From a virus (Duplodnaviria; Caudoviricetes): 54,365 bases of DNA. A program made the translations under genes and the position numbers. Under the pieces are notes generated by a model. It was not told the DNA's origin. It worked only from the letters and a program-made list of their open reading frames with translations, and did no database searches. The stretch lies in IMG/VR virus record IMGVR_UViG_3300021226_000131, positions 1 to 54,365 of that record; one strand, 5' to 3'. Positions 25,007-51,276 of the stretch are shown here, in pieces (position 1 is the stretch's first letter; each line of letters opens with the position of its first letter).

Positions 25007-26956
25007 TCAAGCCGCCTCTTTCAGATATGCCAATGGTGATTTGGCGTTCGCGCTGAACTTGCCCCGGGCCATTGATTTGCCTTTGTGCTGCCGAATTTTA
25101 GCCCGCATCTCGTCCAAACGGCGAGCCCCATCCTTGGTGGAGCCATCGCCCAAGAGCGACACGGTTTCAGCGTCCATGACGTACTCGCCATCGGAGAGCT
25201 TGGCGTTGATGGTGTCATCGCGGCCAGAGCCGCCTCCGGTTGCCAGGCGCGACAAAATGCCGCCCCGGGCCTTGGCCACCGCAGTGGTGTCCGTGGCGAC
25301 CGGGTTGTCGTACATGCCGCCGCCGACCTTGTCCCAGTTGCGGGCAATGTAGCTGCCCAGCGGCAGGCCCTGCATCTTGGCGGCCGCGCCAAGCGTGTCC
25401 CAGTTCCAGGTGCGCATCGGGCGGTTGAAGTACTCCTTCTGCTCGGGCGTCATACCAGCAACCACTTGTTGCACCTGCTCTGGCGTCTGGGCGGCGCTGA
25501 ACAGGGAGAGCAGCGGCAGCATGCTGGCGGCAGAGCTCAGGCCGCTCACGCCCAGCTTGTTTGTGGACCCGGCGTCGGTCTTGGCAACCGTCGGCATCGC
25601 TTCGGCGGTCTGCGCGGCGATCGCGTTAAGTGGGGACTGCTGGATGCCAGTGCCAAGCTCCGGTTGGGCCGAGGCAGTTTGCGCGGTGGGGGCCGTCAGG
25701 GAGTAATCAACGGTCGGGGTTTCCGGACCAGTGTATGTCGGCGTGTTGCCGCCGGTCAGGCTGTAGTTTGTGCCCAGGCCCATCTCCGGGACGCTGGCTG
25801 TGTTCAGGGCCGGGGCTTTCAGGCCTTCGACAGCAATGTCGGACGGCGATTTCAGGCCCAGGCCGCCGGTGTCGGATGGGGTAATGTCGTAAAGCGATTT
25901 CGCGGGCTCAGCATTAAGACCTGCGGCCAAGCCGGTCAGTGCGCCTTGAGCCAAAGCCTGCGTTGGTGTTGCGCCCATGGTCAGCGCGTTGCCAAACTGC
26001 TGGCCTGCGGTCTGCAAGCCTGAGCCAAGCTGGCCACCAACGCCGCTGGCAACGTTTGACAATGTGCTGCCGGTGTACCCGCCAAGTGCGCCTTGCAAAG
26101 CGCCCTGCGTGGCTCCCTGGCCGCTCAGTGCCCCCTGGGCTGCGCCAGCAAGTGTGCTGCCGACGACGTTTTGGGCCGTGCTGCCAAGACCCAGGTTCAG
26201 GGCGTCGCTGGCTGCACCACCCAAGGCAGATGCACCGCCAGCGCCAATAGCGCCACCAAGGGCGCCTTGCAAGGCGTTGCCACCGGCAGCGGCCGAGCTG
26301 GCGCCGCCAATCACCGCACTGCCCAGCATGCTGGCTGCCGTACCGCTGGCCCCAAGAGCCGTGCCGATCGCGGTACCGATGCCGGGAGCCACGATCGACA
26401 GCACAACGGGGGCCACGGCCGAGATCAGCTTGCCGATGCCGCCCTTGAACTCGACCAGGCCGGTTGTGGGGTTCACGGTGCCGGAGCCGCCCATGCGAGC
26501 CAGCATCGAGGCCTCACGCGGATTGATGTGCGCCAGCATGGTGTCGCCACCACGGCCAGCCGCGGCAACGCGCTGGGCCGCCTGAGCCAGACCGCCACGG
26601 GCAAACGCCTGCGAGCCGCCGGACTGGTAGCGGGTCTGCACCTCATAGAGCGCCACCAGCATGGACACGATCAGCACGGGGTCGAATTCCGCGGGGAAGT
26701 CCTGCTCAGAGCCAAAACCGGCGCGAATCGCAGCCTCGCGGACCTTGGGGTATTCCTGCGGGTTTTGAAGCACGTACTCCAACGTGGCCACCAGTTGGTC
26801 GACCATGTTTTCCGTGATGCCCGGCATGTTGGCGATGCGCGCCTCGATGACGTCAGCGGCTTGCTGAACCTGCGGGTTGTTGGCCGCCATGGCCATGATC
26901 GTTTGCTTGTCGATTTGCGGGGTCATCTGTTCACCAGTCTGGAAGTTGTCCATCAC
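25007..26956 (-). CDS. Gly/Ala-rich internal virion protein with AxGG motifs
   Basis: GRGGDTMLAHINP.E...GGSGT.NP.TGL.EF; C-terminal GSGRDD.I.A.LSDGEYV.DA..VS.LGDGS. Confidence 0.7.
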   Translation of the reverse strand: MMDNFQTGEQMTPQIDKQTIMAMAANNPQVQQAADVIEARIANMPGITENMVDQLVATLEYVLQNPQEYPKVREAAIRAGFGSEQDFPAEFDPVLIVSMLVALYEVQTRYQSGGSQAFARGGLAQAAQRVAAAGRGGDTMLAHINPREASMLARMGGSGTVNPTTGLVEFKGGIGKLISAVAPVVLSIVAPGIGTAIGTALGASGTAASMLGSAVIGGASSAAAGGNALQGALGGAIGAGGASALGGAASDALNLGLGSTAQNVVGSTLAGAAQGALSGQGATQGALQGALGGYTGSTLSNVASGVGGQLGSGLQTAGQQFGNALTMGATPTQALAQGALTGLAAGLNAEPAKSLYDITPSDTGGLGLKSPSDIAVEGLKAPALNTASVPEMGLGTNYSLTGGNTPTYTGPETPTVDYSLTAPTAQTASAQPELGTGIQQSPLNAIAAQTAEAMPTVAKTDAGSTNKLGVSGLSSAASMLPLLSLFSAAQTPEQVQQVVAGMTPEQKEYFNRPMRTWNWDTLGAAAKMQGLPLGSYIARNWDKVGGGMYDNPVATDTTAVAKARGGILSRLATGGGSGRDDTINAKLSDGEYVMDAETVSLLGDGSTKDGARRLDEMRAKIRQHKGKSMARGKFSANAKSPLAYLKEAA

Positions 26957-27399
26957 TTACTCCTGCGATTCCATTTGTGTTGCTCGTAATCTTCGCGCAA
27001 GAAACCGTAAACGCAAAGATCGTCGTCCTTGAAAGCCCGGCGCATCACGCCCTCGAGCTGAAAACCGATGTGCTCGTCAAACCGACGAGCGGCCGTGTTC
27101 TTGGCCCTCACCAAGCCCGTCACGCGCTGTGCCTGAAAGTGGTCGAAGGCGTACTCAAAAACGCCCCGGAACATCTCCAGCGCAGCGCGCGGCGTGGCCC
27201 ATCTGGCACCAGGCTTGGCGGCGGTGTGCATGTCCACGTTTGTGTCGGTGAAGTTCGAGAGCACCACCACAAACACAAACTCGCCAGCGTCATCCACAGC
27301 GGAAAGCGCGCGGCAAAAACCAGTCGGGCTCTCGATGTTCAAAACATCCTTGGCCCATTCGATGGCCTCGTGCTCGCGCTGTGTGCCGATGTACTTCAT
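26953..27399 (-). CDS. GNAT-family acetyltransferase-like protein
   Basis: FEYAF...RVTGLV..KN.AA.RF..HIGF.LEG.MR. Confidence 0.85.
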   Translation of the reverse strand: MKYIGTQREHEAIEWAKDVLNIESPTGFCRALSAVDDAGEFVFVVVLSNFTDTNVDMHTAAKPGARWATPRAALEMFRGVFEYAFDHFQAQRVTGLVRAKNTAARRFDEHIGFQLEGVMRRAFKDDDLCVYGFLREDYEQHKWNRRSK

Positions 27400-27623
27400 G
27401 ACAGCGAGCCCACCAGGCGCTCAGCCCACTCGCGCCAGTCCGTGAAACCGTAAGGAATAGGCAAGTTTCGGCCGATCGTCGTGTTGTTCAAAAACTGCAT
27501 GCCCCAGTCCTGCCATTTGTCAGGATTATCGAGCCGACCGAAGGAGCCGTAAGCGTCCAGGTCGATGCTGATCTGAGAAGCCCAGTCGAGCAACTGCATA
27601 CCGGTGGGCCTTGTGATGATCAT
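27396..27623 (-). CDS. Small Trp-rich virion-associated protein
   Basis: P.GM...DWA...WQDWG...P.PYGF.DWREWA. Confidence 0.75.
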   Translation of the reverse strand: MIITRPTGMQLLDWASQISIDLDAYGSFGRLDNPDKWQDWGMQFLNNTTIGRNLPIPYGFTDWREWAERLVGSLS

Positions 27624-29449
27624 CCCAGCACCGTCTTGTCCCCGGTCTCAAGGTGACCGATGATTTGCCCCATCTGGTAGTCGCCGTACAGCGCGTTGGA
27701 CTCAAAGCGCAAGCGCAACTCGCGGCGCTGCTCTTTGAGCATCACGATCTGCTCGTATGGCTGGCTGGCCTGGTCGGGGAAGGTGAAGATCGAGCTGTAC
27801 ACCTCTGGCGCGCGGGCGTTGGCCCGGCCGGTGACCTGCACGGTCATCGGGCCGTTTTGCACAAAGTCCGGCTCGATGACCGAAATCCGCAAGTACTCGT
27901 TGCTGCCCTGGGCAACCGGCGAGAGGTCGGCGGTCTCGAAATACGACTGCACCGGCTCGGCCAGCGTGCCGTCGATCATGTCCACACCCTGCTCATGCAC
28001 CCAGGTGCGGTAGCCGCTGGCGGTTGGCACGGCATCGACCAGGATGGGGGCAGCGAAAGCGTTATTGAAGCCGCCAGCCGACCGGCCGGACTCGGGCAGC
28101 GCGGTGTCGTACCAGGTGTTTTCCCGCACGTTGTAAATCACGGCGTGCGTGCACTCGGTGGCGTCGCCGCGTGGGTAGCACCACCAGATTTCGCCGTAGC
28201 GCGGCACCTTGAAGGCAAAAACCTTGCTGTGCTGGTGCGGGTTCAGGCCGTCCAAGAAGTAGTTGATGTTGAGCTGGTTGGGCACATCGCGCACCACGCC
28301 GTTGAACATCAGGAAGCGGTCCACCCCGGCCCAGTAAAACACGCCGTCGTAGTCCACGACCGAGTCAGCGGACATGATCGAGGTGTCGGTGGCAATCGTG
28401 TCGAACTGAAACACCGTGGCGCCGCCCGTGAAGGTGGCGCGGATCACGGCGTCGTAGGCCCAGAAGATGCCAGCCGGGGCCGAGCCAGAGCCTGCGCGCA
28501 GTGGCATGCCCTTGACGATCTTTTGGCCCCAGACGCGGGCAATACCGGAGCCTGCGCCGGTCAGGTTTGTGGGGGCACCAGCAACGGACCAGCCGATGAT
28601 GCCCGCCGTGCCGTAGTAGAACAGGTACGGGTGCAGCGCCACGATGCCGCCCGTGGCGTTGGCGCCGGACGGAATCTGTACGCTTTTCAAAGGCGCGGTG
28701 CCCAGAATGTCGCCGTAGAAAATCTGGCCGCCAATATCGTTGCACAAACAGTTGCCGTTGGGCGCCACGTGGGCCAGCAAAGAGTTGTACGTGGTCGACG
28801 AGTCGTACTCGGACTGGAACATCCAGCGGTTTGCAGGTGAGGCCACCAGCGCGTCCGAGCCGCCCGCCATGTCGGTCGATGTGGCCGTGATCGTGGTCAC
28901 GCTGGGCACGACTGCATAGCCGTTGGTTGTGCCGTTTGCCGTCACGGCCGTGATGGTGATCACCGGTCCAACGGCCACAGCGGTGTAGTCGGGGGACGAG
29001 GTGAACAGGTTGATGTTTGTGGCCACAGCCGTTGCCGTTGCGGCCAGGCTGCCAACAAACGCCACGCCACCGGACATGATCTGCACGCCGTTGACCGTGA
29101 TGCCGTTGACCGAGCCCGCAGCGCCGCCCGTGAGCGTCACCGTGCCCGTCGCGGCCACAGCCACTGGGGTGCGGTTGGACACCAAGCTGGCGTTCTTGCT
29201 GGCGTCGATCGTGAAGCGCTCCAGCGTGCTTGGGCCGCCGCTGTGGCAGTACTGCAACAGTTGCTGCGTGAAGCTCATAAAGCCGCGCGAAATCTCGGTC
29301 AGGTACTTGGAAATCGAGCGGTACCCGCCGATCTTGCGAGGCAGGCCGCGCTGAAACCGCACCCATTGGCCGTCGGTGTAAAACTCACCGTCGAACTTGG
29401 TGCCGTCGCGCTTGATGCCGGGCTGGGAGCGGAGGATTTGCGTTGGCAT
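27620..29449 (-). CDS. Tail nozzle/stabilisation protein (P22 gp10 / T7 gp12-like)
   Basis: PGIKRDGT...WVRF.RG.PRKIGG N-terminus; EIWW.YP...VIYN.RENTWY. Confidence 0.8.
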   Translation of the reverse strand: MPTQILRSQPGIKRDGTKFDGEFYTDGQWVRFQRGLPRKIGGYRSISKYLTEISRGFMSFTQQLLQYCHSGGPSTLERFTIDASKNASLVSNRTPVAVAATGTVTLTGGAAGSVNGITVNGVQIMSGGVAFVGSLAATATAVATNINLFTSSPDYTAVAVGPVITITAVTANGTTNGYAVVPSVTTITATSTDMAGGSDALVASPANRWMFQSEYDSSTTYNSLLAHVAPNGNCLCNDIGGQIFYGDILGTAPLKSVQIPSGANATGGIVALHPYLFYYGTAGIIGWSVAGAPTNLTGAGSGIARVWGQKIVKGMPLRAGSGSAPAGIFWAYDAVIRATFTGGATVFQFDTIATDTSIMSADSVVDYDGVFYWAGVDRFLMFNGVVRDVPNQLNINYFLDGLNPHQHSKVFAFKVPRYGEIWWCYPRGDATECTHAVIYNVRENTWYDTALPESGRSAGGFNNAFAAPILVDAVPTASGYRTWVHEQGVDMIDGTLAEPVQSYFETADLSPVAQGSNEYLRISVIEPDFVQNGPMTVQVTGRANARAPEVYSSIFTFPDQASQPYEQIVMLKEQRRELRLRFESNALYGDYQMGQIIGHLETGDKTVLG

Positions 29450-29463
29450 CTGTTTTTTCCCGC

Positions 29464-30663
29464 TTAGAAGGTCCCGCCCACCACAACGCCAGAAGGTGCG
29501 ATGCCCAGAGCAGCGTAAGCCGATGCGCCGTCTGCGGCCGTGAACACCGCGTCGCCCACAGCCGTGGCGCCCAGGTTGATGCGAGCCGAGCCTGCCGTGG
29601 TTGCGCCGGTACCGCCGTCGGACACCTGAATGGGCACGGCCAGACCGCCCGTGTCGGCGTTGACCACGTTGGTGCCATCGCAGTAAAGGATGGAGCGCGA
29701 GCCGGATGCCACCAAAACGCCCGCACCGCTGGCTGTTTTGATGGTGAAGTTGTAAGCGCCGGTCGTGGCGTTGGTCACCCAGTACTGCTGGACGGTGGCG
29801 GGGACGATGATCGTGCGGTTGCCGGTCAGAGTGCCGGTGAACGAGTACGCAATCCGGTTCAGCTCGGTACCGGTCAGGGTGTAGTTGCCAGAGCCGGAAA
29901 CGCTGATCGAGGTGTAGTCGAAGGCAAATGTGGCCGACTGGCCAAAGCCGATCGTGAAATAGTTGGCGCCGTCCGAGACGATGATGGCCGACTCGCCAGG
30001 CTGGAAGGACAGAATCGGGCCACCGTCAATCAGGATGGTGCCCGCAGGGTCGGCCACGATGGCGCCCGAGCCCGAGTTGCGCAGGTAGATGAACCAGTTG
30101 TTGCCAACGATCGTGGGCGCTGGCAGCGTGATCGTGCCGCCTGCGCCGGTCCAGACAAACATCCGGGCGCGGTCTTGCGCGCCTGCGGTGTAGTTGCTGT
30201 TGAACTGCGTGACCGGGACCGCCTGCGAGAGCAGTGTGCCCACGGCCACGATGCCGGTACCGGCCAGAGCCGAGGCGTTGGCTTGCGAGATGGCGGCGCC
30301 GTACTGCAGCGTTTCCCATGCACCGGCCGCCGTGCTGTTGTCGGTCAGGTAGACCTGCCACAGTGTGCCGGGGGCAACGGTCATCACCTGGACGCCAGCG
30401 TTGTCCTTGACCGTGAAAGTGAACGTGCCCAGGTTGTTGAACAGGATGGTCTGCCCCGTGCCGGTGCCGTTGGCAGGCGGCAGCGTGATCGCCAGGCCAT
30501 CGGCAGCCTGGGTGACGTCCATGATCTTGGTGGCCAGGTTCTGGCTGGTCGAGGTCTCGTCGGGCCAGCTCAGCGTGATGTTGGTGGCCAAGGCGACGGC
30601 GCTGTAGTCAATCTCGCTGGGGTAGATGTTCGCCCCACCGAAAACGTCGGTGTATGTGGTCAT
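29464..30663 (-). CDS. Tail structural/fibre-base protein
   Basis: Thr/Gly-rich beta strands; FTGTLTGNRTIIVP; GGTGATTA..AR.NLG. Confidence 0.75.
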   Translation of the reverse strand: MTTYTDVFGGANIYPSEIDYSAVALATNITLSWPDETSTSQNLATKIMDVTQAADGLAITLPPANGTGTGQTILFNNLGTFTFTVKDNAGVQVMTVAPGTLWQVYLTDNSTAAGAWETLQYGAAISQANASALAGTGIVAVGTLLSQAVPVTQFNSNYTAGAQDRARMFVWTGAGGTITLPAPTIVGNNWFIYLRNSGSGAIVADPAGTILIDGGPILSFQPGESAIIVSDGANYFTIGFGQSATFAFDYTSISVSGSGNYTLTGTELNRIAYSFTGTLTGNRTIIVPATVQQYWVTNATTGAYNFTIKTASGAGVLVASGSRSILYCDGTNVVNADTGGLAVPIQVSDGGTGATTAGSARINLGATAVGDAVFTAADGASAYAALGIAPSGVVVGGTF

Positions 30664-31289: not shown

Positions 31290-31342
31290 GTGGACTCCAG
31301 GTGGTTGTGAAGCCGCTGGTCCAGCTGGCGCTTGATGCCCGA

Positions 31343-31372
31343 ATTATGCCCGGGAACGGCCTGGGCTGGCAA
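31343..31372 (-). promoter_or_regulatory. Candidate sigma70-type promoter
   Basis: TTGCCA-18-CATAAT in the gap upstream of 31289. Confidence 0.5.
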
Positions 31373-31380
31373 ACCGATCG

Positions 31381-32286: not shown

Positions 32287-32374
32287 AAATAACCTCCATG
32301 AAAATGCGGACGGACCAAAGCACCACGCCCACCAGCAGCAGGGCGGCGATCAGTGCTTCGGCCCAGTCTCTCAT
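32279..32374 (-). CDS. Small single-TM protein (31 aa)
   Basis: MRDWAEALIAALLLVGVVLWSVRIFMEVIYA; overlaps both neighbours. Confidence 0.6.
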   Translation of the reverse strand: MRDWAEALIAALLLVGVVLWSVRIFMEVIYA

Positions 32375-32694: not shown

Positions 32695-32702
32695 GCTTCC
32701 TT

Positions 32703-39135: not shown

Positions 39136-39768
39136 TCAACGCTTGGATGCCTTGCGGCCTTCGGACATGGCAATCGCCATGGCCTGCTTGCGGCTGGTGA
39201 CCTCGGGGCCCTTCTTGCTGCCAGAGTGCAGCTCGCCAGCCTTGAACTCGCCCATGACCTTGCCGATCTTGGCCTGGCCAGCCTTGGACGTCACCTTACC
39301 ACCGGTTTTCATGCCGCCGATCATGGGCTGCGCAGGAGCGACGGGCACCATCTTGCGGCGAACGGATGGCATCTTCACCTGCGTGCGCTCGGTCAGCTCT
39401 TCGCGCTGCATGCGAGGCGTTTCCATCTTCTCGTGCTTGACCATGGCTTGGCGGCTGGGGTATTTCTCGCCGGTGGCCTTTTCGACCACGGGGCCGCCCT
39501 TGGCCAGCTTGAGCGTGGGCAAGCTGGGCGCCACAGGCTTGGAGCCTTTGACACCAGGGTTCTTGTTGTCCTTGATGCCAAGCGAGCTCTTGTCGGCGAT
39601 CATGGTCTGGCCCTTGAAGCCAGGGGCCTGGACTTTGCCGCCCTTGGCATAACCCGAGTCGCAAGACCCGCCTTTTTCGTACTTCACCGCGCCGCCCTTG
39701 GCGTACTTCACGGCGCCGTCCTTGCCTTTGGTGCCGAAGTCGAACTCTTTGACGTATGTGCAGCCCAT
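39136..39768 (-). CDS. Lys-rich protein with five AKGG-like motifs and a C-terminal KVM.EFK.G.LHSG domain (DUF6496-like)
   Basis: SD AAGGAG; YAKGG, YEKGG, YAKGG, LAKGG, MKTGG; KVMGEFKAGELHSG...KQA.AIA.SE. Confidence 0.8.
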   Translation of the reverse strand: MGCTYVKEFDFGTKGKDGAVKYAKGGAVKYEKGGSCDSGYAKGGKVQAPGFKGQTMIADKSSLGIKDNKNPGVKGSKPVAPSLPTLKLAKGGPVVEKATGEKYPSRQAMVKHEKMETPRMQREELTERTQVKMPSVRRKMVPVAPAQPMIGGMKTGGKVTSKAGQAKIGKVMGEFKAGELHSGSKKGPEVTSRKQAMAIAMSEGRKASKR

Positions 39769-40691: not shown

Positions 40692-41153
40692 TCAGGTGTT
40701 TTCAAACTTTGCGTTTTTCCTGCAGTTCTCAAACCACGGGATGACTTGCAAATTCCATGGGACATGAAGACCAGAAACGGTTTTTCCTTGCAAAGGAACG
40801 ATGTGGTCAACATGCCATTGAAAGCCTGTGAGCTTTGACCGCACTTGAGCAAGATGATATGCCTCGTCAACCATCCACAACTCGTCTTCTGACAACCAGG
40901 ATGGGACTCTATTTTTTAACGCAGCATCACGTTTACGCTGGTAGGCGGCACGCTTGTGTTGATTTTTTGAAAACCATTCGCGACTATAAGCATTGCGTTC
41001 TTCGGAATGTTTTTCACGATTTATTGCACAGATTTCTTTTCTTCGTTCTTGGTTATTTGAAACCCATGCGGCAGAGCGACTTTTGGTCAGCTCCTTATTT
41101 TTAAGGTACCACTCCCTTGAAAGGCGCTTTGCGTTTTCTTTGTCTCTGGCCAT
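40692..41153 (-). CDS. HNH endonuclease (free-standing homing type)
   Basis: WHVDHIVPL.G..VSGLHVPWNLQV....N..K; AT-rich compared with flanks. Confidence 0.92.
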   Translation of the reverse strand: MARDKENAKRLSREWYLKNKELTKSRSAAWVSNNQERRKEICAINREKHSEERNAYSREWFSKNQHKRAAYQRKRDAALKNRVPSWLSEDELWMVDEAYHLAQVRSKLTGFQWHVDHIVPLQGKTVSGLHVPWNLQVIPWFENCRKNAKFENT

Positions 41154-42150: not shown

Positions 42151-42166
42151 GTTTCAGCCCTCCTTA

Positions 42167-42804: not shown

Positions 42805-43335
42805 TCAGGTCAGCTCAAACTGAGCTTTCCGTTTTTGTCCAATTTCAGACATGCCATCACCCGCATCCATGCGCGACCCCGATGCACGAGCCTGTTGCTC
42901 CATGAACTCAGCCGTGTCAGTGAGCTTTTCCTCTTCGCGCAGCGGCGCGTCGTGGTGAGCTTCCTGCATGTACTTTTCGTACAGGCTGATAGGGAGTTTG
43001 AAGGCGAGCATTTCGTTGACACCGATAAAGCCCTGCCACTCGCCAGTTTTGACGGTGACATATTCCCAGCCAGGCACGTCGCTCGGCTTCAGGGGCTCGT
43101 AACCCAGACGCATACGCATGTGGATCGAGTCACGGGGGTTGGTCGTGGTTAGCCAGCAGCAATGCCAGCCATCGAGTTTGGGCAAGTCCGGAAGTGAGGA
43201 CTGGTGGAACTGCTGTCGGAACATTTCAACCCGCTCATCATCGGACAGGGCGCGCGATTCAGAAACGGCGCGATCTACCATCGCACGGTTCTCGCGGTTG
43301 TCACCAGCAGATTTCTTTAAGCGTTCGTCAGACAT
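42805..43335 (-). CDS. Conserved head-region protein
   Basis: GWH.CWL....GYEP...G.IGV..ML..K.P. Confidence 0.75.
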   Translation of the reverse strand: MSDERLKKSAGDNRENRAMVDRAVSESRALSDDERVEMFRQQFHQSSLPDLPKLDGWHCCWLTTTNPRDSIHMRMRLGYEPLKPSDVPGWEYVTVKTGEWQGFIGVNEMLAFKLPISLYEKYMQEAHHDAPLREEEKLTDTAEFMEQQARASGSRMDAGDGMSEIGQKRKAQFELT

Positions 43336-43363: not shown

Positions 43364-43391
43364 ATTATAGGTTGGATTTCAAAAAACACAA
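43364..43391 (-). promoter_or_regulatory. Candidate promoter for the capsid genes
   Basis: Perfect TATAAT (43369-43364) in an AT-rich gap; only a weak -35. Confidence 0.45.
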
Positions 43392-43399
43392 CGCGATTT

Positions 43400-44401
43400 T
43401 TAAGCGCGGTTGTTTTTGTCGTATTCGGCATAGCGTTTTACGTACTTCATTCGAAGCACGGGATCGTCCCAAACGCCTGCGTCAATCAGAGCCTGCTTGC
43501 GCTCTGGGCTGATGTACACCTCGGTGCGGGTGCTGGTTGGTGCATGCTCACGGCCAGAGCCAATCGCAGGGCCGCCACGAGTCTGGCGTTGCTGGCGGGG
43601 CTCGTCGCGGGTGCCACGGTCATCGCCATGGTCGTTGCGGCGCTGGGTCTGCTTGAAGCGCTCGGGCAGGCGGCGGGCAACGCGATCGCGCAGCTCGTCC
43701 CAGTACTCCTCGGTGTCAGGCCGGAAGCCCTCGCGGTGCAGGGCGCCGTCGATGGCCAGCACAACAGCGCTGTCCTCGTCTTGGCCCTTGAGGTCGTACC
43801 AGGGGTTTTCGCTGATGAACTCCTTGGCGTAGTGCACCGCCATGTCGTCCAAACCGTCGTCTTGCTTGACCGGGCGCTGGTTGGCCGCCTGCTGCTTGGC
43901 AAACGCCAGTTGTTGCGCTTTTTGCAAGGCCTGGTCACGGTAGCGCATGGCCTGGGTGACGTCGTCCCCGTTGCCAGCGGCCACGGCCTTGGCGATCACA
44001 CGCTCAGCCATTTCGGCCTCGTTGCGGGCCTGGGCGATCTGGGCGTCGAGCTGAGACAGGTCAGCTTGGTGCGTGCGCTGCTCGACGGTACCGAGGCGGC
44101 GCTCGAGGTCGTCGTTGCGCTTGCGCAGGAAGTTCAGCTCCAGCTTGTCGCGGCTGATCGCCTCTTCGCGGCGTTGCTTGCGCTCGGCCTTTTCCTTTCG
44201 GCGGCGTTCGCGGATGGCCTCGCGCTCGGCGTCGTTTCCGTCGCCACGGTTGTCGTCGTCGTTGCCATTGAGGCGCGCGTCGCCGTCGTCATCGTGGCCG
44301 TCGTCGGCGTTGTCGTTGGGCAGGTTTTCAACGATGACCAGCTCTTCCCGGTTTTCCGGGTTGTTGCTGTTGTCGTTGTCGTCTTCGGTGAGTGCAGGCA
44401 T
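43400..44401 (-). CDS. Putative scaffolding protein
   Basis: Acidic N-terminus, long coiled coil, NPWY, EYW.EL..R; upstream of the capsid genes. Confidence 0.75.
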   Translation of the reverse strand: MPALTEDDNDNSNNPENREELVIVENLPNDNADDGHDDDGDARLNGNDDDNRGDGNDAEREAIRERRRKEKAERKQRREEAISRDKLELNFLRKRNDDLERRLGTVEQRTHQADLSQLDAQIAQARNEAEMAERVIAKAVAAGNGDDVTQAMRYRDQALQKAQQLAFAKQQAANQRPVKQDDGLDDMAVHYAKEFISENPWYDLKGQDEDSAVVLAIDGALHREGFRPDTEEYWDELRDRVARRLPERFKQTQRRNDHGDDRGTRDEPRQQRQTRGGPAIGSGREHAPTSTRTEVYISPERKQALIDAGVWDDPVLRMKYVKRYAEYDKNNRA

Positions 44402-44419
44402 GGTTTTCTCCTGTGATGT

Positions 44420-44767
44420 TTATTGGCAGGCCTCGCAGGTGCCTTCGCCCGAGAGGTCGCAGGCTTGGCCGAGGGGGAAGTCGTCGTCGTGGGCAGCCTT
44501 GGCGGCCAGCTTGCTGCGCAGCTCGTAGCCCATGAGCGGCCAGAGCTCGTTCTTGGCGTTTTTGATGGCCACAGCCTCGCCGATGGCGGGGTCGTCGTTT
44601 GCCGGAGAAACGGACGCTGATGGGCGGCCGGTCACGGCAAAACCATTACGGGTGGTCAAAACGGCCCAGCGCAGAATTTGGCCAGACTTCGACACGTGCT
44701 TGACGATCTCGGTGTCCACGATGTTGGCGTCAAGGTCCGCCGGTGTAACTCGATTTGCGGTGCTCAT
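44420..44767 (-). CDS. N4 gp49/Sf6 gp66-family protein (candidate nucleotide-signal sponge) with Cys tail
   Basis: RVTP..L...I...VL..RNGF.V.G..A.VSP.N.D..IG...A..NA...LWPLMGY.L. Confidence 0.85.
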   Translation of the reverse strand: MSTANRVTPADLDANIVDTEIVKHVSKSGQILRWAVLTTRNGFAVTGRPSASVSPANDDPAIGEAVAIKNAKNELWPLMGYELRSKLAAKAAHDDDFPLGQACDLSGEGTCEACQ

Positions 44768-45252
44768 GAGTGGCAGCTCCAATCTTCGGACAGGCAGTCG
44801 TTCACGCTGGGAACCCAGGTGCTCACGCTGTTGTCCACGTTTTTGATCGCCAAGTAGGCGTTGTAAGGGACCAGTGCGTCATCGCCAAAGTAGGCCTTGG
44901 CCGTTGGCGTGCGCGCCGGGTAGCTGTCGGCCGGGACGTAGTAAACGAACATGCCCTTGCCATTCCAGCCAGCGCGGGAAACCTTCATCCCCGCCTTGAG
45001 CGCTTCCAGGGCTTGGCCGAAGGTCATGTTTTCGGACGGCCGGTAGGCGCGCTCGAACACATCCTTGGGGCTCCAGCTCACGTATCCAGCGTAATGGTCA
45101 GTGTTGCCCTTGCCTCCGTCGACGTACTCAACAAGGTAGCCCGCATCCGCAGGGTTCTCGTCTGCCGGGACAGTCCAGCCACGGAAGTCGTTGTATTCCT
45201 GGCGGGTCATAGGCTTGGCGTTGATCAGTTTTGTGCCGATATAACGTTTCAT
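44764..45252 (-). CDS. DUF2829/Tad2-like protein with additional N-terminal domain
   Basis: MTFG.ALEALK.G.KV.R.GWNGKGMF...WVPS..D.L.EDW; N-domain YIGTK...PMTR...GYLVEY.DG...Y.SWSPKDVFE.AY. Confidence 0.88.
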   Translation of the reverse strand: MKRYIGTKLINAKPMTRQEYNDFRGWTVPADENPADAGYLVEYVDGGKGNTDHYAGYVSWSPKDVFERAYRPSENMTFGQALEALKAGMKVSRAGWNGKGMFVYYVPADSYPARTPTAKAYFGDDALVPYNAYLAIKNVDNSVSTWVPSVNDCLSEDWSCHS

Positions 45253-45261
45253 GGTGCCCCC

Positions 45262-45672
45262 TCAGATGAACGCACGGATGGCCAGCGGGTCGCCGGTCAC
45301 CTGGCCAATGATGTCGAGATCGTTGAAGATCACGAACAGAGCCGACTCGCCGGATTCCATGGGGACTTCCCAGCGATCGCCGCCGTACTTGGGCACGCGA
45401 ACGTAGTCGCCCGGCTTGCACCAGCTGCCTTCCGGCCAGGAGTCCATGGTGTTTCGGTTCTTGAACGCAAGCGCGCCAACAGAGACAACGCGGGCCACCT
45501 GGGTGTTCCACTTCTCGGTGTCACGCGAGCCGTTGTCAATGATGATGCCCGAGGCGGTCTTGGTCTTGGGGGTGCGAATCTGCACCAGGACGCGGCTTCC
45601 AAACGGGATGATTCCCGGGGATGCGTCGGGAAATGCCTCCCGCATCGCGTCAATCAGCACTTCAGCTGTCAT
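45262..45672 (-). CDS. groES: GroES-like co-chaperonin
   Basis: P.G.RVLV...KT.SGIII...VV.VG...W...GD.V...KYGG...ND.DI.G. Confidence 0.9.
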   Translation of the reverse strand: MTAEVLIDAMREAFPDASPGIIPFGSRVLVQIRTPKTKTASGIIIDNGSRDTEKWNTQVARVVSVGALAFKNRNTMDSWPEGSWCKPGDYVRVPKYGGDRWEVPMESGESALFVIFNDLDIIGQVTGDPLAIRAFI

Positions 45673-45745
45673 CTTCTGCTCCTTTCAGCAGGTGTACGGC
45701 GGCCACAGCGGCCGCCATCAAAAAATCGTCACAGACCTGTGCAAA

Positions 45746-45943
45746 TCACAGGTCTCGGTCGCCGTGTCGCTCGTCGTCCAGAAGGGCAAGCAGGGCTGCA
45801 ATGGCCGCTTCGTATCCAGCGACCATGCCCACGCGGTATCCGTACTCGAAAGCGTCACGCTCGACCGGGCGCTTGAGGGCTTCAAGCGCAAATGCCTGCT
45901 GGTCAGCCTTGAGCTTTCCGAGCAGGCGGTCCTCGATGGCCAT
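45746..45943 (-). CDS. Small helical protein
   Basis: FEY...VG...GYE.A...L; between portal and GroES. Confidence 0.75.
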   Translation of the reverse strand: MAIEDRLLGKLKADQQAFALEALKRPVERDAFEYGYRVGMVAGYEAAIAALLALLDDERHGDRDL

Positions 45944-46080
45944 CAGGCGGGGGTCTTAGGCATCGTGGGGGCAGACGGCAAGGTCTGGCCGGTCACGGGC
46001 TGGCCAGCGGCCATGCGGTGGTGCTGCTTGACCAGTGCACCAGTCATTGGCACGGTGCTTTGGGTGGGTTTGTCGCTCAT
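45943..46080 (-). CDS. Small hypothetical protein (45 aa)
   Basis: SD AAGGAG; MSDKPTQS...VKQHHRMA.G; TGATG overlap with the next gene. Confidence 0.65.
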   Translation of the reverse strand: MSDKPTQSTVPMTGALVKQHHRMAAGQPVTGQTLPSAPTMPKTPA

Positions 46081-46101
46081 GGAGTGCTCCTTGGGGTTGG
46101 A

Positions 46102-48630
46102 TTATCGTGTGCCCGGGTTGATCCCGGTACCGGTGCTGACGGCGATTTTCTCGCCGGAGGCAATTTCTGCTGCAGCCAGGCGCATGGCCGTGGCGTTGTC
46201 CGCGTCGTTCATCTGCAAGCGGGCATCAATTTCAGCGGCCGTGCGCTGATTCTCGGATGCTTGGCGCAACTGCTCGGACTGGAACTCTTCGGCGCGAGAC
46301 TGCTGCTTGTCGGCCAGAGCGGCGGCATCCAGCTGCGACTTCTGCGCGGCTTTTTGCTGCTCGAGCTGCAATCGTGCCGCGTCGGTCTGGGCCCGCTGCT
46401 GCAGTGCAAGCTGCTGCACCTGCGCATTGAGCTGCGCAATCTGCATGCTGTTGTCTTGCGGCATCTGTGGCGGCTGAGGTGCAAACTGCTCGGCCATCTT
46501 GTCGATCTGAGCCAGCTCCTGCGCAAACTGCGCCAGCTGCTGCTCGATGATCTGCTGGACCTTCACAATCACGCGAACTTGCTGCTCGGCATCGCCGTCG
46601 GCGATCAGGTGCTCACGCTCAGCGCGCTGCACAGCCTCGTGTGCTTGCGTGAGGTAGAAGTTCAGCAGGTGGTCGCGCAGGTGCTGCGCCATCGGGTAGA
46701 TGTAGGTCTTGACGATGGCCGGGTTCATGCCAAACATCGGCGACTTCAGGAACGCCAGGTGCGTCTGGATGTGCGCCACGTGGTCCTGCTTGGGCAGCAC
46801 GTAGACCGGACGGCCCATCGAGGCGGCAACGTTCTCGCTCACCGGGTCAACGTCGTCTTGGCCAGGCTGAGGCTGCAGCACATCGTCTGGGCTGAGCTTC
46901 AGGTTGCGCAGGAACATTTCCTCGACCTTGCGCAGGTCGTACATCTGCGGCATGGCAGCCGCGCGGGCCTGCACGGCCTGAACCTGGGCGAAGCGCTGGG
47001 CCTCGCTGAAAATGGCCGGGTCGCTCACAGGCACAACGTCCATCGGGCCGTCGAAGTCCTCGGGCTTGATCTCCAGACCAGATTCTTCGGCCTCGATATC
47101 CTCGTCGGTCAGGTAGGCGCTGTTGATGCGGTGCAGGATCTGGAACACGCGCGCCATCGAGTTGTGTAGGCGCGAGTGGATGGAGCTGAACACCACCATG
47201 CCCTGCTCGATGAGCGCCAAGGTTGTGCCCACCGGAGCGTTGGGGTTCTGGTCAGACAGTTTCTCGAACGAGGTCTGCACCACGCCCCTGCCAGCGTCCA
47301 CCAAGAAGCCGAGCAGCTGGAACAGCGTGGGGCTCGGGCCGTTGAACGGCAGCGGCATGGCCAGCTTGCGAATGTCGTCTACCAGGGCGCCGCCCTCGAT
47401 CTCGACCACCTCGGTCGGCTGCACGTTGATGGTTTGCCCGCCAGGCCCGCCCTTGAGCTTGATCATGGTCGGGATGTTCTGGATGTGGGCCGAGTCCAAC
47501 AGCGCGCGCAGGGCGCCGGTGGCCGCACCGGACAGGCCGCCGATCATGTGGGTGAGGCCAATCGGGTAGGCACCGCGCCACGGCACGAACGGGAACTCGA
47601 CAATCCAGTCCAGTTCTTTGCGGCGCTTGTCCTCGGGCTCCCAGTTGCGATACAGGGCCAGGGCCTTGCGCGTGGACTTGTCGATGCTGATGATGTACGG
47701 CTCCATGCCGTCACCGAAGTCCAGGTGGGTGTAAATCTCGAAGATGGTGCGCAGGCCGTCCTCGTTGTAGCTGGTGTCCTCGCGGCCCTCGATCTTGTCG
47801 TTGGCCACTGTCGAGCGGCTGAACTCGATCTGATCGGGCGAGCCAATAACCACATCGGCGTACATCCCGGCCTTGACGCGGCGGTTGAACTCGGACTTGG
47901 TGACGTACTGCACGTGCGTCTTGCGCTCGGCCGAGTAAAAGTTGGTGGCCGCAAACGGCAGGTAAATGTCGTCGATCGGGATGAACTCAGCGGTCGGGCG
48001 CTTCCACTGCGGCGACCACATGAGCTTGAGGTACTGGCCGCCGCCCAGGGGCAGCTGCGTGGACAGTTGCTCAAGCTCACCGCGCAGCTCTGGCATCTGC
48101 TGCGTGGTCTGCCAGTTCATGAAGTCGGCCTTGCGGCGGGCTTTTTCCAGCTTCTCGGGCTCGACCTCGCCCAGAATCTTGGACTTCACGGGACCGGAAG
48201 GCGGGAATACCTCCTTCATGAAGCGGGCGCTGAAGTCGACGCAGGCCTCGACCAGCATCGGGTGCACGACCTTGTTGGCGCCGGTGAATTGCGCGCCGCC
48301 GGGAGCATCGTCGCCCAGGCCGGTGCGGCGCAGGCCTTCCTCGTAGAGCTTGTCGCGCTTTTCGCGGGCGTCCTTGTCGCGCTCGATCTTGTCGAGCAGG
48401 TCGCTGGTCGCGTCGGCCAGCATGCTGCGATCGACCTCGTCAACGATGTTGGCGAAGTGGGCCTTTTTGTCGGCCACATCCTGCTCATTTTTCATGCGAA
48501 TGACCGCACCACCGTCGTCGGTGTCCTCGACCTCCATCTCGTCCTCGGTCGGCAGGGTGACGGTCTCGCCGCGCTGCTCTTCCTCGGAGTCGTTGACGTC
48601 GGTGCCGTTGTTCAGAAGTTCGTCTGCCAT
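46102..48630 (-). CDS. Portal protein
   Basis: 842 aa; VVHP.L.EA...F.A; YPIGL.HMIGGL...AT..LR.L.D; APVGTTLAL.E; Gln-rich C-terminal barrel. Confidence 0.92.
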   Translation of the reverse strand: MADELLNNGTDVNDSEEEQRGETVTLPTEDEMEVEDTDDGGAVIRMKNEQDVADKKAHFANIVDEVDRSMLADATSDLLDKIERDKDAREKRDKLYEEGLRRTGLGDDAPGGAQFTGANKVVHPMLVEACVDFSARFMKEVFPPSGPVKSKILGEVEPEKLEKARRKADFMNWQTTQQMPELRGELEQLSTQLPLGGGQYLKLMWSPQWKRPTAEFIPIDDIYLPFAATNFYSAERKTHVQYVTKSEFNRRVKAGMYADVVIGSPDQIEFSRSTVANDKIEGREDTSYNEDGLRTIFEIYTHLDFGDGMEPYIISIDKSTRKALALYRNWEPEDKRRKELDWIVEFPFVPWRGAYPIGLTHMIGGLSGAATGALRALLDSAHIQNIPTMIKLKGGPGGQTINVQPTEVVEIEGGALVDDIRKLAMPLPFNGPSPTLFQLLGFLVDAGRGVVQTSFEKLSDQNPNAPVGTTLALIEQGMVVFSSIHSRLHNSMARVFQILHRINSAYLTDEDIEAEESGLEIKPEDFDGPMDVVPVSDPAIFSEAQRFAQVQAVQARAAAMPQMYDLRKVEEMFLRNLKLSPDDVLQPQPGQDDVDPVSENVAASMGRPVYVLPKQDHVAHIQTHLAFLKSPMFGMNPAIVKTYIYPMAQHLRDHLLNFYLTQAHEAVQRAEREHLIADGDAEQQVRVIVKVQQIIEQQLAQFAQELAQIDKMAEQFAPQPPQMPQDNSMQIAQLNAQVQQLALQQRAQTDAARLQLEQQKAAQKSQLDAAALADKQQSRAEEFQSEQLRQASENQRTAAEIDARLQMNDADNATAMRLAAAEIASGEKIAVSTGTGINPGTR

Positions 48631-48632
48631 GT

Positions 48633-50834
48633 TTACCCTGCGTTGAGTGCGTTGAGATCGCCCACGATGGCGTCGATTCTAGCCGGGTCGAAGTCTACTG
48701 TGTGGGAATTCGCAACCAGGCCGCCGTCAGCGTAGGCTCGAACGTCCCCAGCTTGACCACCGTCTGCGAATCGGTAGGCCGACGCTGGGTCCTGCATCGC
48801 GTCGCTGTTGTAGATGTTGGAGCCGACCAGGCCGTTGCCTGTCTGGCCGTTGCTCACCACGCCGCCTTCAGCGTATTTCTGGACCAGGCCGCCCATGGCG
48901 AAACCTTCGCCGCGCACGCCTGGGGTGAGGCCGGTGCCAAAGGTCCGCTGCAGGTCTTCAATCTCCGCAGGTGACAGGTAGTTCCCCACCTCGCGGCCCG
49001 AGCTCTTTAGGGTCTCCAGCTCCAAGTCGTTAAAAACATCACGTGACGAACGAAGCCCCGTGTTCTGCAGATCACCGATTCGACCCCAGTTCCCAGACCG
49101 GATGAAGTCCTGCACGGCAGGCAGGTACTCTTCCTTGGGTGCGCGGTTGGCCTTGCCTTTGATCTGGACGATTTCAGGGGTGCTTATTTTTCGCGCGTAA
49201 TCCTGAGCTTCTTCAAGAGTTGGGAAGCCGTTACCTTGGTTGTTGACGATAAATGTCGGTCGTCCTTTGAAATTGCCTTCGGTGATCGATGGATTTTCAA
49301 CGCCCGGCGCCACCTCGATCGTCACGTGCGGCTGGCCCTTCTTGTCGCGCAGGCTGTAAATCTTGGACCGACCCTCGACCACATCAGGGCAGTAGCCGCC
49401 GACGCAGTGGCCCATGGTCTCGCCTTCGTACTTGAGGGCGTCCTCCAGGGCTTTGTAGGACTCGTCCATTTCGACCTTCTTCTTGCGGCCGAAATCCTCC
49501 ATGGTCCGGCGCACGAAGTCGTTGAACTCGCGCGTGCCTTCCTCGAGCCCTTCGTCGTATGCCATGTCCATGGCCACTTCGCGGCCCATGGCCTCGTTGT
49601 AGTCAGGAGGCAAATCCATCTCAGGTTTCTCGACGCTGATCTTGCGGCCAGTTTCCTTGGGGGCTTTGAGCTCCACCCACTTGAAGCCCTGGTCCGGGTA
49701 CTCCTTAATCACATGCGTGGCGGGCCCCATCGCCCGCGCCATGTCTGCCTCAGCCTTCTGCGCCGCACGCCACTCGTTGATCTTGGCCACGCGCTCGACC
49801 GCCTGGGGCACGGTGACCTTTTCCAGGTCGGAGTACTTCAGGCGCAGGTTCTCTGGCAAACCGGACGCAGGGTTGATGGCGTTTTTCAGCTCGTCGACCA
49901 GGTGGGTGAATCCAAGATTGGCTGCGGCATCAGACTGCGACGGTAAATAAACGGGCGTCTCTGGGGGAACCTTGGCCAGCCAAGGCATCTGCTCGGCGTA
50001 GCCTTGCCGTAGAAGCTCACCAGCTGGCATCTGGCCAATCGTCACATCACTTGCATCTTCCCACGCTTTTGCCGCTTCGCTTTGGCCCATGGCTTGGTTG
50101 CCAGATTTTCTGCGAAGGTCTGAAGCCAAATACCGATTCAAACCAATTTGCTCTGGGGCAATGTGCAAAACGCCACGCTCAGCCAGCGCGCGGACGGGGT
50201 CCTCGGGCGTAGCCATCTCGTTCTTGATGTACTTGCCGAGCTTGGTTTCAATCCAGCGGTTCATGGCCGCCTCTGGAAGTTGACGAGCACGCACGCTTTC
50301 TGAAACATCGACGCCCGCACGCTCTGCCAAGTTTTGAAGCCCGGTTTCGTTGAGGACCGTTTGCTGCATGGGATTTACTACGCGCTCAACGCTTCCCGTC
50401 ATCCAGTTCCCGCCCTTGGGTTTCACTACGTTCACGGCGGGCTGCCCTGCGGCCATGGCGAAGTCACGCCCAGCGCGCGACACCGCCGATGGCAAGCCAG
50501 CGATCGCACGCAGCGGGGAGCCGGGCCCGGCGTAAAACCCGCCGCCCAGCGTGCCCAACTCGGTCGCGGCACGGCCAACGGGCGTCTGGCTTACGCTGCG
50601 CAACGGAAGGCCAGCCTCGACGTCACGACTGGTTGGCAGCACGGTTTTTTCAGACAGGCCCGGCAGCATGCGCACCAGGGACTCAATATCGCCCGGGGCG
50701 CCAAGCACGCCAGAGGCCAAACCGCGCAGGGCGGCCAGAGGAGCGTTGGCAGATGCGGCGCGGTCGTTGAGCTCAGGACGGCGGCGGCCAGCGGAGCGGT
50801 AGCCTATATACGGCTGGTTCAGATCATCGGCCAC
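48633..50834 (-). CDS. Large protein with PcfJ-like domain and four C-terminal (F/Y)AxGG motifs
   Basis: LKYEGETMGHCVGGY...IYSLRD..G.PHVTIEV...I.QIKGK.N. Confidence 0.75.
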   Translation of the reverse strand: MADDLNQPYIGYRSAGRRRPELNDRAASANAPLAALRGLASGVLGAPGDIESLVRMLPGLSEKTVLPTSRDVEAGLPLRSVSQTPVGRAATELGTLGGGFYAGPGSPLRAIAGLPSAVSRAGRDFAMAAGQPAVNVVKPKGGNWMTGSVERVVNPMQQTVLNETGLQNLAERAGVDVSESVRARQLPEAAMNRWIETKLGKYIKNEMATPEDPVRALAERGVLHIAPEQIGLNRYLASDLRRKSGNQAMGQSEAAKAWEDASDVTIGQMPAGELLRQGYAEQMPWLAKVPPETPVYLPSQSDAAANLGFTHLVDELKNAINPASGLPENLRLKYSDLEKVTVPQAVERVAKINEWRAAQKAEADMARAMGPATHVIKEYPDQGFKWVELKAPKETGRKISVEKPEMDLPPDYNEAMGREVAMDMAYDEGLEEGTREFNDFVRRTMEDFGRKKKVEMDESYKALEDALKYEGETMGHCVGGYCPDVVEGRSKIYSLRDKKGQPHVTIEVAPGVENPSITEGNFKGRPTFIVNNQGNGFPTLEEAQDYARKISTPEIVQIKGKANRAPKEEYLPAVQDFIRSGNWGRIGDLQNTGLRSSRDVFNDLELETLKSSGREVGNYLSPAEIEDLQRTFGTGLTPGVRGEGFAMGGLVQKYAEGGVVSNGQTGNGLVGSNIYNSDAMQDPASAYRFADGGQAGDVRAYADGGLVANSHTVDFDPARIDAIVGDLNALNAG

Positions 50835-51276
50835 AAGAGCACTCCTTGATGTGGTTGAGGGGGCTGTGAATCAAACCACCCTGAGCTTTGTTGACCCACG
50901 GAACACCGGCTTGTTGCTCGCGGGCGGCGCGTTCTGCTGCTTGCTGCACAAGGTCCTCAAGTTCGCGCTGCGACTGAGCGCGACGCGCCAGCTCAATACC
51001 CAGCGCGTTGTTGTGCATGTCCTGCTTGTAATCCGGCGGCATCTCGCCCCGGCCAAGCATCATCATCAGCGCGCGCAACGGAGAGGTGGAATACTCGTGT
51101 GCCCGACCTGCCAGATCGGCAACCGTTGGACCGTACTTCCGCGCCATGGTGCCAGCGGCCAACATGTGGCGGGCAGCGTCTTGCTGATCATCTTGGCCAA
51201 GCTGGCCGGGGTACATCTCGCGAGCAATCGCACGCGCGTAAGGCGAGACAGAAAAAATTGATGGGGTATCGGGCAT
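50824..51276 (-). CDS. Protein with DAxRH...HE...DxHNNxxG domain (DUF6973-like) and C-terminal KAQGG
   Basis: DAARHML, AHE, DMHNNALG. Confidence 0.75.
   Translation of the reverse strand: MPDTPSIFSVSPYARAIAREMYPGQLGQDDQQDAARHMLAAGTMARKYGPTVADLAGRAHEYSTSPLRALMMMLGRGEMPPDYKQDMHNNALGIELARRAQSQRELEDLVQQAAERAAREQQAGVPWVNKAQGGLIHSPLNHIKECSCGR

Follow-up and report, generated by a model that had tools for sequence, protein, structure and literature searches.

An aromatic-Ala-x-Gly-Gly-x-Val peptide recurring in putatively ejected proteins of an uncultivated tailed phage: a candidate joint between assembly anchor and payload

We analysed the genome of an uncultivated tailed virus (Caudoviricetes; IMG/VR record IMGVR_UViG_3300021226_000131; 54,365 bp, 99% complete; this whole stretch is called the window below) and found that a short peptide, refined here to (G/K)-(Y/F/W)-A-x-G-G-x-V, recurs in four otherwise unrelated late proteins: a 733-aa PcfJ-like protein, a 150-aa DUF6973 protein, a basic 210-aa protein with a DUF6496 end and a 649-aa ejection-type protein (Table 1). 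The peptide is conserved in the relatives of these proteins, lies at junctions between domains, is widespread in tape-measure proteins and coincides with a maturation site reported for the tail protein pb2 of phage T5. Tentatively, and with less than even confidence, we suggest that the motif may be a joint at which an ejected payload is processed or released from its assembly anchor. Motif positions are counted from the aromatic residue (0), so that the Ala stands at +1 and the Val at +6.

All 13 copies that an initial annotation of this DNA had listed in the four genes were present where it had placed them. Ten of these, each with a hydrophobic +6 residue, match the refined pattern, and LATGGGS, YEKGGSC and MKTGGKV are weaker variants. 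The same annotation had described a portable, modular peptide in the linkers and tails of unrelated proteins, and this description held: Pfam assigned PcfJ, DUF6973 and DUF6496 to three of the carriers and no family to the 649-aa protein, and the four PcfJ-like copies, for example, all fall within residues 645-707 of 733. The four carriers are most likely virion-internal proteins.

We then examined whether Gly/Ala composition, which the initial annotation had itself named among the findings that would refute it, could explain the number of copies. In 5000 per-protein shuffles of the 40 minus-strand late proteins, neither the seven observed occurrences of [FY]A.GG (0.73 expected) nor the ten of [FYLKM]A.GG.[VILA] (0.79 expected) were ever reached, so that composition fails to account for the count. 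GG alone was not enriched (119 versus 108 expected, reached in 682/5000 shuffles) and A.GG alone was enriched two-fold only. A six-frame translation of the window (108,726 residues) contained the strict pattern [FYW]A.GG.V five times, always in the true frame of the PcfJ-like or the DUF6496 protein, and the loose pattern 13 times, of which ten belong to the four proteins as read in their true frames and three to non-coding frames. Since the pattern was chosen after the data had been seen, it is the conservation in relatives, rather than the shuffle test, that is decisive.

For this purpose, relatives were gathered from IMG/VR with the portal (273 found; 80 loci kept, 68-99% identity) and with the 649-aa protein (358 found; 79 loci kept, down to about 41% identity), their open reading frames (ORFs) were assigned to the window proteins by BLAST, and carriers were counted with the loose motif. 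The motif was present in 57/57 orthologues of the PcfJ-like protein, 28/30 of the DUF6496 protein, 6/11 of the DUF6973 protein and 75/79 of the 649-aa protein. It was also found in 30/57 orthologues of a second ejection-type protein, of 430 aa, where it stands at the point at which N-terminal extensions meet the core. No carrier was found among the orthologues of the portal (0/81), the major capsid protein (MCP, 0/46), TerL (0/48), the GroES-like protein (0/67), the 176-aa and 200-aa proteins (0/54 and 0/51), the adaptor (0/77) or the proteins of 399 aa (0/78), 609 aa (0/78), 445 aa (0/70) and 664 aa (0/47), and the unassigned ORFs contained 14 carriers in 1709 and 5 in 2206.

The profile of 172 distinct sites reads (G/K)-(Y/F/W, less often L/K/M)-A-x-G-G-x-V, with Val at +6 in 155 of them, a free choice of residue at x (K, E, D, Q, H and others), a hydrophobic residue at +5 in about half and a mostly polar one at +7. 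In 137 distinct sites, all four synonymous codons occur at the Ala, at each Gly and at the Val, which implies selection for the peptide rather than for the DNA sequence.

A second conserved element adjoins the last motif copy of the protein encoded just upstream of the portal gene. In relatives, this place is taken by about 55 distinct proteins of 119-2207 aa with differing cargo, and nearly all of them end in the same way, with the last motif copy, 2-10 further residues and an amphipathic peptide of the (F/Y)DPxRIDxIVxxL type. In 28 aligned tails, with a mean column identity of 22%, only the GG and the V of the last copy are invariant, and the Asp of the terminal peptide is kept in at least 90%. 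This terminal peptide (DFDPARIDAIVG.L) thus appears to be a better candidate for a docking element than the motif itself. When the portal (842 aa, alignment of 28 rows) and the 100-residue tail (also 28 rows) were co-folded, the score was 0.00, which speaks neither for nor against binding.

The cargo side of the same region places the motif at domain boundaries. The genes for a 91-aa protein, the DUF6973 protein and the PcfJ-like protein are contiguous in the window, with a 4-nt gap followed by an 11-nt overlap in another frame. In relatives, the PcfJ-like part is fused to DUF6973 (L080) or to further domains (L072, L074 and L076), and the separate genes of the window look like a recent split of a polyprotein gene. 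The fused polyproteins of relatives (1404, 1967 and 2207 aa) carry the motif, or a weaker variant such as HAKGGSV or YSHGGDV, between their domains. One of them, in L026, has an ART-PolyVal domain (55 bits, cutoff 31.2) and others carry DUF6973, GNAT and PcfJ-like parts; unrelated effector domains and ART-PolyVal in one chain indicate that these are polyvalent proteins as defined by Iyer et al. (2017). The 91-aa family marks the boundary to the residue: 11 of 11 distinct free-standing forms end in K(V/T)KW-stop, that is, at motif position 0, and five of five distinct fused forms run on as W-A(E/D)GGxV. Free-standing DUF6973 proteins retain a C-terminal motif copy. The only GenBank relative of the PcfJ-like protein, that of phage DSL-LC04 (31% identity, same synteny), has its three motif copies at the N-terminal rather than the C-terminal side. 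Among 119 cargo-side proteins, 7.3% of homology breakpoints (1544 non-independent breakpoints in 64 proteins) lie within five residues of a motif, compared to 3.2% of random positions, which gives modest support to a position at junctions. Pfam, run on 30 tandem-motif carriers for domain edges, found any domain in just five, which is too few.

In the 649-aa protein, the motif copies are part of a larger unit. This protein has 19 GG sites, a Gly/Ala-rich stretch at about residues 180-350 and no Pfam match, and it contains two units in which the motif is followed by a 'GE' segment, FARGG...GDTMLAHINPRE and KARGG...LSDGEYVMDAETV. A profile of the C-terminal module matched the mycobacteriophage Douge tape-measure protein gp16 (8zdo_S) twice, with an E-value of 9.6e-10 for the whole sequence. 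In that structure the modelled residues are 1658-1699 only, and the matched unit lies outside the part that was seen (PMC13033339). The 649-aa module thus has in common with tape-measure units both this homology and the Gly/Ala-rich hydrophobic stretch that precedes it. Searched against 1.84 billion proteins, the module profile found 12,953 representative clusters at E≤0.001; among the 150 matches listed, 145 have the module's anchor segment, and 128 of these 145 have an A-x-G-G no more than 45 residues upstream. The predicted fold of the module reached a predicted local distance difference test score (pLDDT) of 54, falling below 50 over the motif, and gave no usable structure. A module that is unfolded in prediction in spite of invariant residues fits a peptide that is read by another molecule. 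Elsewhere in the same protein, the segment GDTMLAHINPREASMLARMGGSGTVNPTTGLVEF (26447-26548) matches proteins of Methylophilales phage Venkman and two spring-water phages, which are otherwise unrelated, at 53-62% identity across stretches of 34-54 residues, and appears to be a paralogue of the LSDGEYV unit at the C-terminus.

Two well-studied tail proteins allow the motif to be compared with known processing. T5 pb2 has a single A-x-G-G in its 1219 residues, within FVPR1127-AEGGMMY, past a Gly/Ala-rich hydrophobic stretch at 1050-1075. Mass spectrometry mapped the maturation cut of pb2 to the C-terminal side of R1127, at a point that separates the hydrophobic stretch from the lytic domain (Linares et al. 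2023, PMC10038345). Six T5-like proteins, from five genera and with identities as low as 36%, all keep R-A-x-G-G. In lambda gpH, FATGGFT (733) and YATGGYV (778) lie past a Gly/Ala-rich stretch (690-730) and flank VHRGEFVFTKEAT, outside both Pfam domains. The cleavage of gpH was first seen in 1974, and its precise site and catalyst are stated to be unknown in a 2025 structural paper, in which residues about 690-817 are unresolved. Computed masses are 79.8 + 12.5 kDa for a cut at 733 and 84.6 + 7.7 kDa for a cut at 778. For both proteins, the released C-terminal fragment is described as staying on the tail hub (for T5, PMC10038345). The initial annotation had offered cleavage after the GG as its second option; processing does fit better than docking, but the place it proposed does not, as the T5 cut at R1127 precedes the Ala.

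The motif extends well beyond this clade. When IMG/VR was scanned with a degenerate DNA pattern encoding two copies spaced by 9 residues, at least 115 stretches matched, and in all 80 loci that were fetched the copies were in frame, in ORFs of 117-3191 aa. PHROGs was run on 60 of the 80 carriers (the 20 largest or most truncated were left out) and assigned 22 to tape-measure proteins, 4 to DNA ejection proteins and 4 to others (a lytic tail protein, an endolysin, a virion protein and one of unknown function), with 30 lacking a match. The tape-measure carriers frequently contain ...GGxVPG(F/Y)AxGG... arrays in which GG and PG turns alternate. In the flanks of the tandem loci, 8 of 583 other ORFs have the strict motif, several of which are small and basic. 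These sequence matches indicate that the motif is not specific to capsid cargo. Searches of open-access text, including some aimed at motifs and cleavage of tape-measure and ejection proteins, showed no description of the motif.

We propose that the carriers are proteins that leave the virion through the tail, namely the tape-measure proteins of long-tailed phages, the ejection proteins of short-tailed phages and polyvalent effectors encoded beside the portal gene. A terminal peptide or fragment would first keep the protein on its assembly platform; in this clade, the anchor would be the C-terminal DFDPxRIDxIVxxL peptide, and in T5 and lambda it would be the C-terminal fragment bound to the tail hub. 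The joint, with a full range of (G/K)-(Y/F/W, also K/L/M/R)-A-x-G-G-x-(V/L), would then be cut at or beside the bond that joins the Ala to the residue at motif position 0, by a host enzyme, in an assembly-dependent manner or by self-cleavage. The cut would free the payload for exit through the tail, and the domains of polyproteins would come apart.

Several points weigh against such a joint. For this phage and its clade, cleavage is a proposal from sequence throughout, and neither Pfam (80 proteins, both genome halves) nor PHROGs (40 late proteins) found a protease. Copies spaced by 9 residues, and four to eight of them in one small basic protein, would better suit multivalent binding or a repeated structure. 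The 649-aa copies belong to the larger tape-measure-type unit and have Leu at +6 where the bare copies have Val, so that two related but distinct elements may have been lumped together. The T5 site is disputed: an older study gave V1148±1, and R1127 is also a tryptic site (DT57C authors, PMC11937520). V1148 ends the next conserved segment, GE.G.E..TP, so that both proposed sites bracket one unit. The strict pattern is missed in T5, with R at 0 and M at +6, and at lambda F733, with T at +6, and the lambda fragments of 12.5 or 7.7 kDa agree only roughly with about 14 kDa by gel. Cleavage of T5 tail proteins requires the host chaperonin (Zweig and Cummings 1973, as cited in PMC5649160); this form of host involvement lends no support to a host protease. 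A host protease, as the title of the 1973 paper would suggest, was rejected as a candidate for T5, since the paper is cited for the chaperonin dependence. Finally, the boundary coincidence of the 91-aa family is essentially one evolutionary event, and no ORF in the gene-start test opens with the motif, so that the boundary evidence depends on this family alone; the breakpoint enrichment is about two-fold, from breakpoints that are not independent.

A broader claim, which we regard as a serious but doubtful possibility, is that one motif is a common processing site for every class of ejected protein across tailed phages, with a catalyst that is possibly self-contained or triggered by assembly. 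If true, this would give the lambda gpH cut, predicted at F733-A734 or Y778-A779, and would account for the disassembly of polyvalent proteins that lack peptidase domains.

As opposed to a cleaved joint, the motif itself could dock cargo, which we consider unlikely: its copies would bind the assembling particle, at the scaffold, the capsid interior, the portal or the tail lumen, by avidity and with no cleavage. Docking would explain why the motif is portable between N- and C-termini, why copies occur in tandem with a 9-residue period and up to eight per small protein, and why they are found on most putative internal proteins and are absent from shell, portal and tail structural proteins. The disorder of the motif on its own and the C-terminal copy of the free-standing DUF6973 proteins also suit it. 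However, the tape-measure carriers (the 22 of 60, and T5, lambda and Douge) assemble in the tail and not in the capsid, no single partner is common to podovirus, siphovirus and myovirus contexts, and the conserved terminal peptide beside the last copy is the better candidate for this role. Docking inside the procapsid, which the initial annotation had preferred, therefore clashes with the wide presence of the motif in proteins that are not capsid cargo. It had argued from the lack of a recognised prohead protease; neither Pfam nor PHROGs detected one in either half of the genome, but the argument is weak, as P22 gp7 is trimmed by a host enzyme beside a GG, and lambda gpH and T5 pb2 are cut without a known catalyst.

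Similarly improbable, in our estimate, is a purely structural joint that stays uncleaved, in which the Gly-Gly turn would act as a hinge or hairpin, so that bead-like chains could be stored extended and pass the narrow channel of portal and tail, or would pair strands between the chains of trimers. The position at domain junctions, the alternating GG/PG-turn arrays of tape-measure proteins and the passage through the tail that the carriers have in common would all be consistent with this. Generic flexibility, however, requires neither an invariant Ala nor Val at +6 nor an aromatic residue at 0, AlphaFold gives no hairpin or confident structure for the module, and the coincidence with the T5 cleavage point is left unexplained.

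It is quite improbable that the motif mimics the mobile loop of GroES and recruits host GroEL to large, aggregation-prone ejected proteins. There is a loose likeness, as Gly-Gly is followed by hydrophobic residues (GGLV, GGVV, GGLI, GGIL), the phage encodes its own GroES-like protein by the portal, also in 67 loci, and T5 tail-protein cleavage needs the host chaperonin (PMC5649160, citing Zweig and Cummings 1973). The three hydrophobic residues of the GroES loop are nevertheless missing, given that conservation is limited to +6 (Val in 155/172), with a mixed +5 and a largely polar +7; the conserved Ala does not line up with this phage's GroES loop, KTKTASGIIID, and the chaperonin requirement in T5 tail assembly can be indirect. 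Lastly, chance or the composition of Gly/Ala-rich linkers in a GC-rich genome, which the 19 GG sites of the 649-aa protein and the two-fold enrichment of A.GG might suggest, has next to no probability in view of the shuffles, the six-frame control, the orthologue conservation with a free x and the synonymous codon variation.

The late genes of the window occupy about 54.3 to 20.3 kb of the minus strand, for which PHROGs and Pfam gave the following order in the direction of transcription. A small-terminase-like gene and TerL are followed by small genes, the 91-aa gene, the DUF6973 and PcfJ-like genes and the portal gene. After the portal come a GroES-like protein, a Tad2-like protein, an N4 gp49-like protein and a charged coiled-coil protein of 333 aa (43400-44401), which is probably the scaffold, then two proteins without a family (176 and 200 aa) and the MCP. 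Next are endonuclease VII, small genes and the basic protein with the DUF6496 end, then tail genes including a SU10-type adaptor and an endolysin, a GNAT gene and four large ejection-type proteins (649, 445, 430 and 664 aa).

Table 1. Positions of the motif copies, their carrier proteins and associated features in the window (numbering of the whole stretch).
Feature	Position	Strand	Remark
91-aa protein	51281..51556	-	Ends ...ANKVKW at motif position 0; first domain of polyproteins in relatives
DUF6973 protein, 150 aa	50824..51276	-	Pfam DUF6973 37.5 bits; 11-nt overlap with PcfJ-like gene; fused in L080
KAQGGLI	50869..50889	-	Residues 130-136 of DUF6973 protein; motif copy, 20 residues before C-terminus
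PcfJ-like protein, 733 aa	48633..50834	-	Pfam PcfJ 30.7 bits; directly upstream of portal; putative cargo domain of a split polyvalent protein
FAMGGLV	48882..48902	-	Residues 645-651 of PcfJ-like protein; motif copy
YAEGGVV	48855..48875	-	Residues 654-660 of PcfJ-like protein; motif copy, 9 residues past the preceding one
FADGGQA	48750..48770	-	Residues 689-695 of PcfJ-like protein; motif copy
YADGGLV	48714..48734	-	Residues 701-707 of PcfJ-like protein; last motif copy
C-terminal peptide DFDPARIDAIVGDLNALNAG	48636..48695	-	Candidate anchor for assembly; kept as the C-terminus of whichever protein is encoded before the portal
Portal, 842 aa	46102..48630	-	PHROG portal 1.8e-13; motif-free; anchor gene of the clade
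Basic protein, 210 aa	39136..39768	-	N-terminus MGCTYVKEFDFG; five motif or variant copies; C-terminal DUF6496, Pfam 37.8 bits
YAKGGAV	39685..39705	-	DUF6496 protein; motif copy
YEKGGSC	39661..39681	-	DUF6496 protein; variant copy
YAKGGKV	39631..39651	-	DUF6496 protein; motif copy
LAKGGPV	39487..39507	-	DUF6496 protein; motif copy
MKTGGKV	39292..39312	-	DUF6496 protein; variant copy
Ejection-type protein, 649 aa	25007..26956	-	Gly/Ala-rich hydrophobic middle; two tape-measure-type units (motif + 'GE' segment)
FARGGLA	26585..26605	-	Residues 118-124 of 649-aa protein; motif copy, then GDTMLAHINPRE
KARGGIL	25253..25273	-	Residues 562-568 of 649-aa protein; motif copy opening the C-terminal module
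LATGGGS	25226..25246	-	Residues 571-577 of 649-aa protein; degenerate copy; relatives have (F/M)A(R/Q)G.GSG
Segment GRDDTINAKLSDGEYVMDAETV	25160..25225	-	Invariant in the alignment of the 649-aa C-terminal module
Ejection-type protein, 430 aa	22343..23635	-	No motif copy in the window (ends NIGGSE)

The DUF6496 protein belongs to a family with 1236 matches, in which the number of motif copies is variable and reaches eight per small protein. Its N-terminus, MGC.YVKEFDFG (39733-39768), persists in relatives in which the C-terminal DUF6496 domain is replaced, and the EFDFG within it is similar to the DFDP in the terminal peptide of the protein encoded before the portal. In an unrelated phage, the IMG/VR contig L212, three small proteins (133-193 aa) each have copies of the KEYA(K/M)GGGVRK type, which is the same pattern of several small basic motif carriers per genome. 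As for the 430-aa protein, the C-terminus of its family is conserved as GLYRET.P.GGLE-stop (22346-22363 in the window), with the Gly-Gly two residues from the end, and in distant relatives (the set L082-L160) the protein reaches 700-1350 aa by N-terminal additions.

Several neighbouring genes of the head and tail modules were also examined. The GroES-like co-chaperonin (45262-45672; Cpn10, 9e-10; mobile loop KTKTASGIIID) is encoded just downstream of the portal in the 67 loci and in phage DSL-LC04. A further gene of the head module, located between the portal and scaffold genes and kept in only 15/80 related loci, encodes a protein with a Tad2-like (Thoeris anti-defence 2) domain (44764-45252; Pfam, 87.6 bits). 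The 176-aa protein (42805-43335), which the initial annotation had put forward as a possible partner of the peptide, is encoded between the MCP and the probable scaffold, and nine orthologues share invariant W57-H58-x-C60-W61 and H127-H128-D129. It showed no family or structure match, its predicted fold (pLDDT 58) was too low for a structure search, and neither it nor the 200-aa protein matched solved structures above chance level in profile searches. The 176-aa protein could be a small enzyme, a maturation protease being among the candidates. The GNAT acetyltransferase gene (26953-27399), amid the tail and ejection genes, was found in 17/79 related loci and is hence accessory. An endonuclease VII-like gene just past the MCP (40692-41153) and an HNH endonuclease gene in the early region (15565-16026) are probably mobile nuclease insertions.

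Several known systems can be set beside the motif. The T4 capsid targeting sequence is a short N-terminal peptide that sends internal proteins into the prohead by binding the scaffolding core and is then removed by the prohead protease, which cuts at L/I-x-E. The anchor-plus-joint model proposed here would work in a like manner. Unlike T4, there is no detectable prohead protease, the motif is another one, it occurs also in tail proteins, and its copies are mostly internal or C-terminal, an N-terminal position being found in DSL-LC04 only. Encapsulin cargo-loading peptides are likewise short, Gly-containing, portable and terminal, on unrelated enzymes of an HK97-fold shell, and they bind the shell lumen and stay uncleaved. 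The motif does not share their restriction to shell cargo, since the 22 tape-measure proteins among the 60 tandem carriers are never in the shell. Nor does it have the three hydrophobic residues of the GroES mobile loop. Double-glycine or ubiquitin-like GG processing would go with a nearby C39 or JAB peptidase, and none is present among the window proteins; a Prok-JAB match in a protein of the relative L051 was below threshold (16.6 bits, cutoff 25).

Closer to a processing joint are proteins of the ejection apparatus or tail tip that are cut beside Gly-Gly at a junction. P22 gp7 is cut by host OpdA between the E20 of SYPE and the KGGKGG that follows it (record annotation; PMC8402733), and the glycine-rich junction NGGGNSGGGD of the TP901-1/Tuc2009 Tal protein, which precedes its lytic domain, is described for TP901-1 as a processing site that is lost with Gly-to-Arg changes (PMC11409707). 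Both differ from the motif in sequence and register and have no aromatic-Ala-x-GG-x-Val. The P22 site was accordingly rejected as a true instance and serves as a precedent only. The multi-domain effectors of the relatives resemble the polyvalent proteins of Iyer et al. (2017; PMC5512222), which are predicted to be packaged and injected, and like these they are encoded in the packaging/head module by the portal and terminase genes, in a gene order that is the same in DSL-LC04. Processing of polyvalent proteins was proposed to occur by embedded peptidase domains (PMC5512222), in contrast to the proteins described here, in which no peptidase domain was found. The words linker, glycine and PcfJ are absent from the main text of that article, which does not describe a junction motif in those words.

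The nearest likeness is to T5 pb2 and lambda gpH, which, compared by eye, have the same layout as the 649-aa protein: a hydrophobic Gly/Ala-rich stretch, then (R/F/Y)-A-x-G-G, then a 'GE' segment. These two are tail proteins of siphophages, whereas the carriers here are internal or ejection-type proteins and effectors of a short-tailed phage. If the joint is real, it would yield residue-level predictions for lambda and T5 and a sequence signature for injected proteins in uncultivated phage genomes, considering the number of clusters that carry the module, and the anchor-plus-joint arrangement would lend itself naturally to packing foreign proteins into phage particles. The processing of virion proteins at such joints is known from isolated cases in a few phages, and one peptide would then link them.

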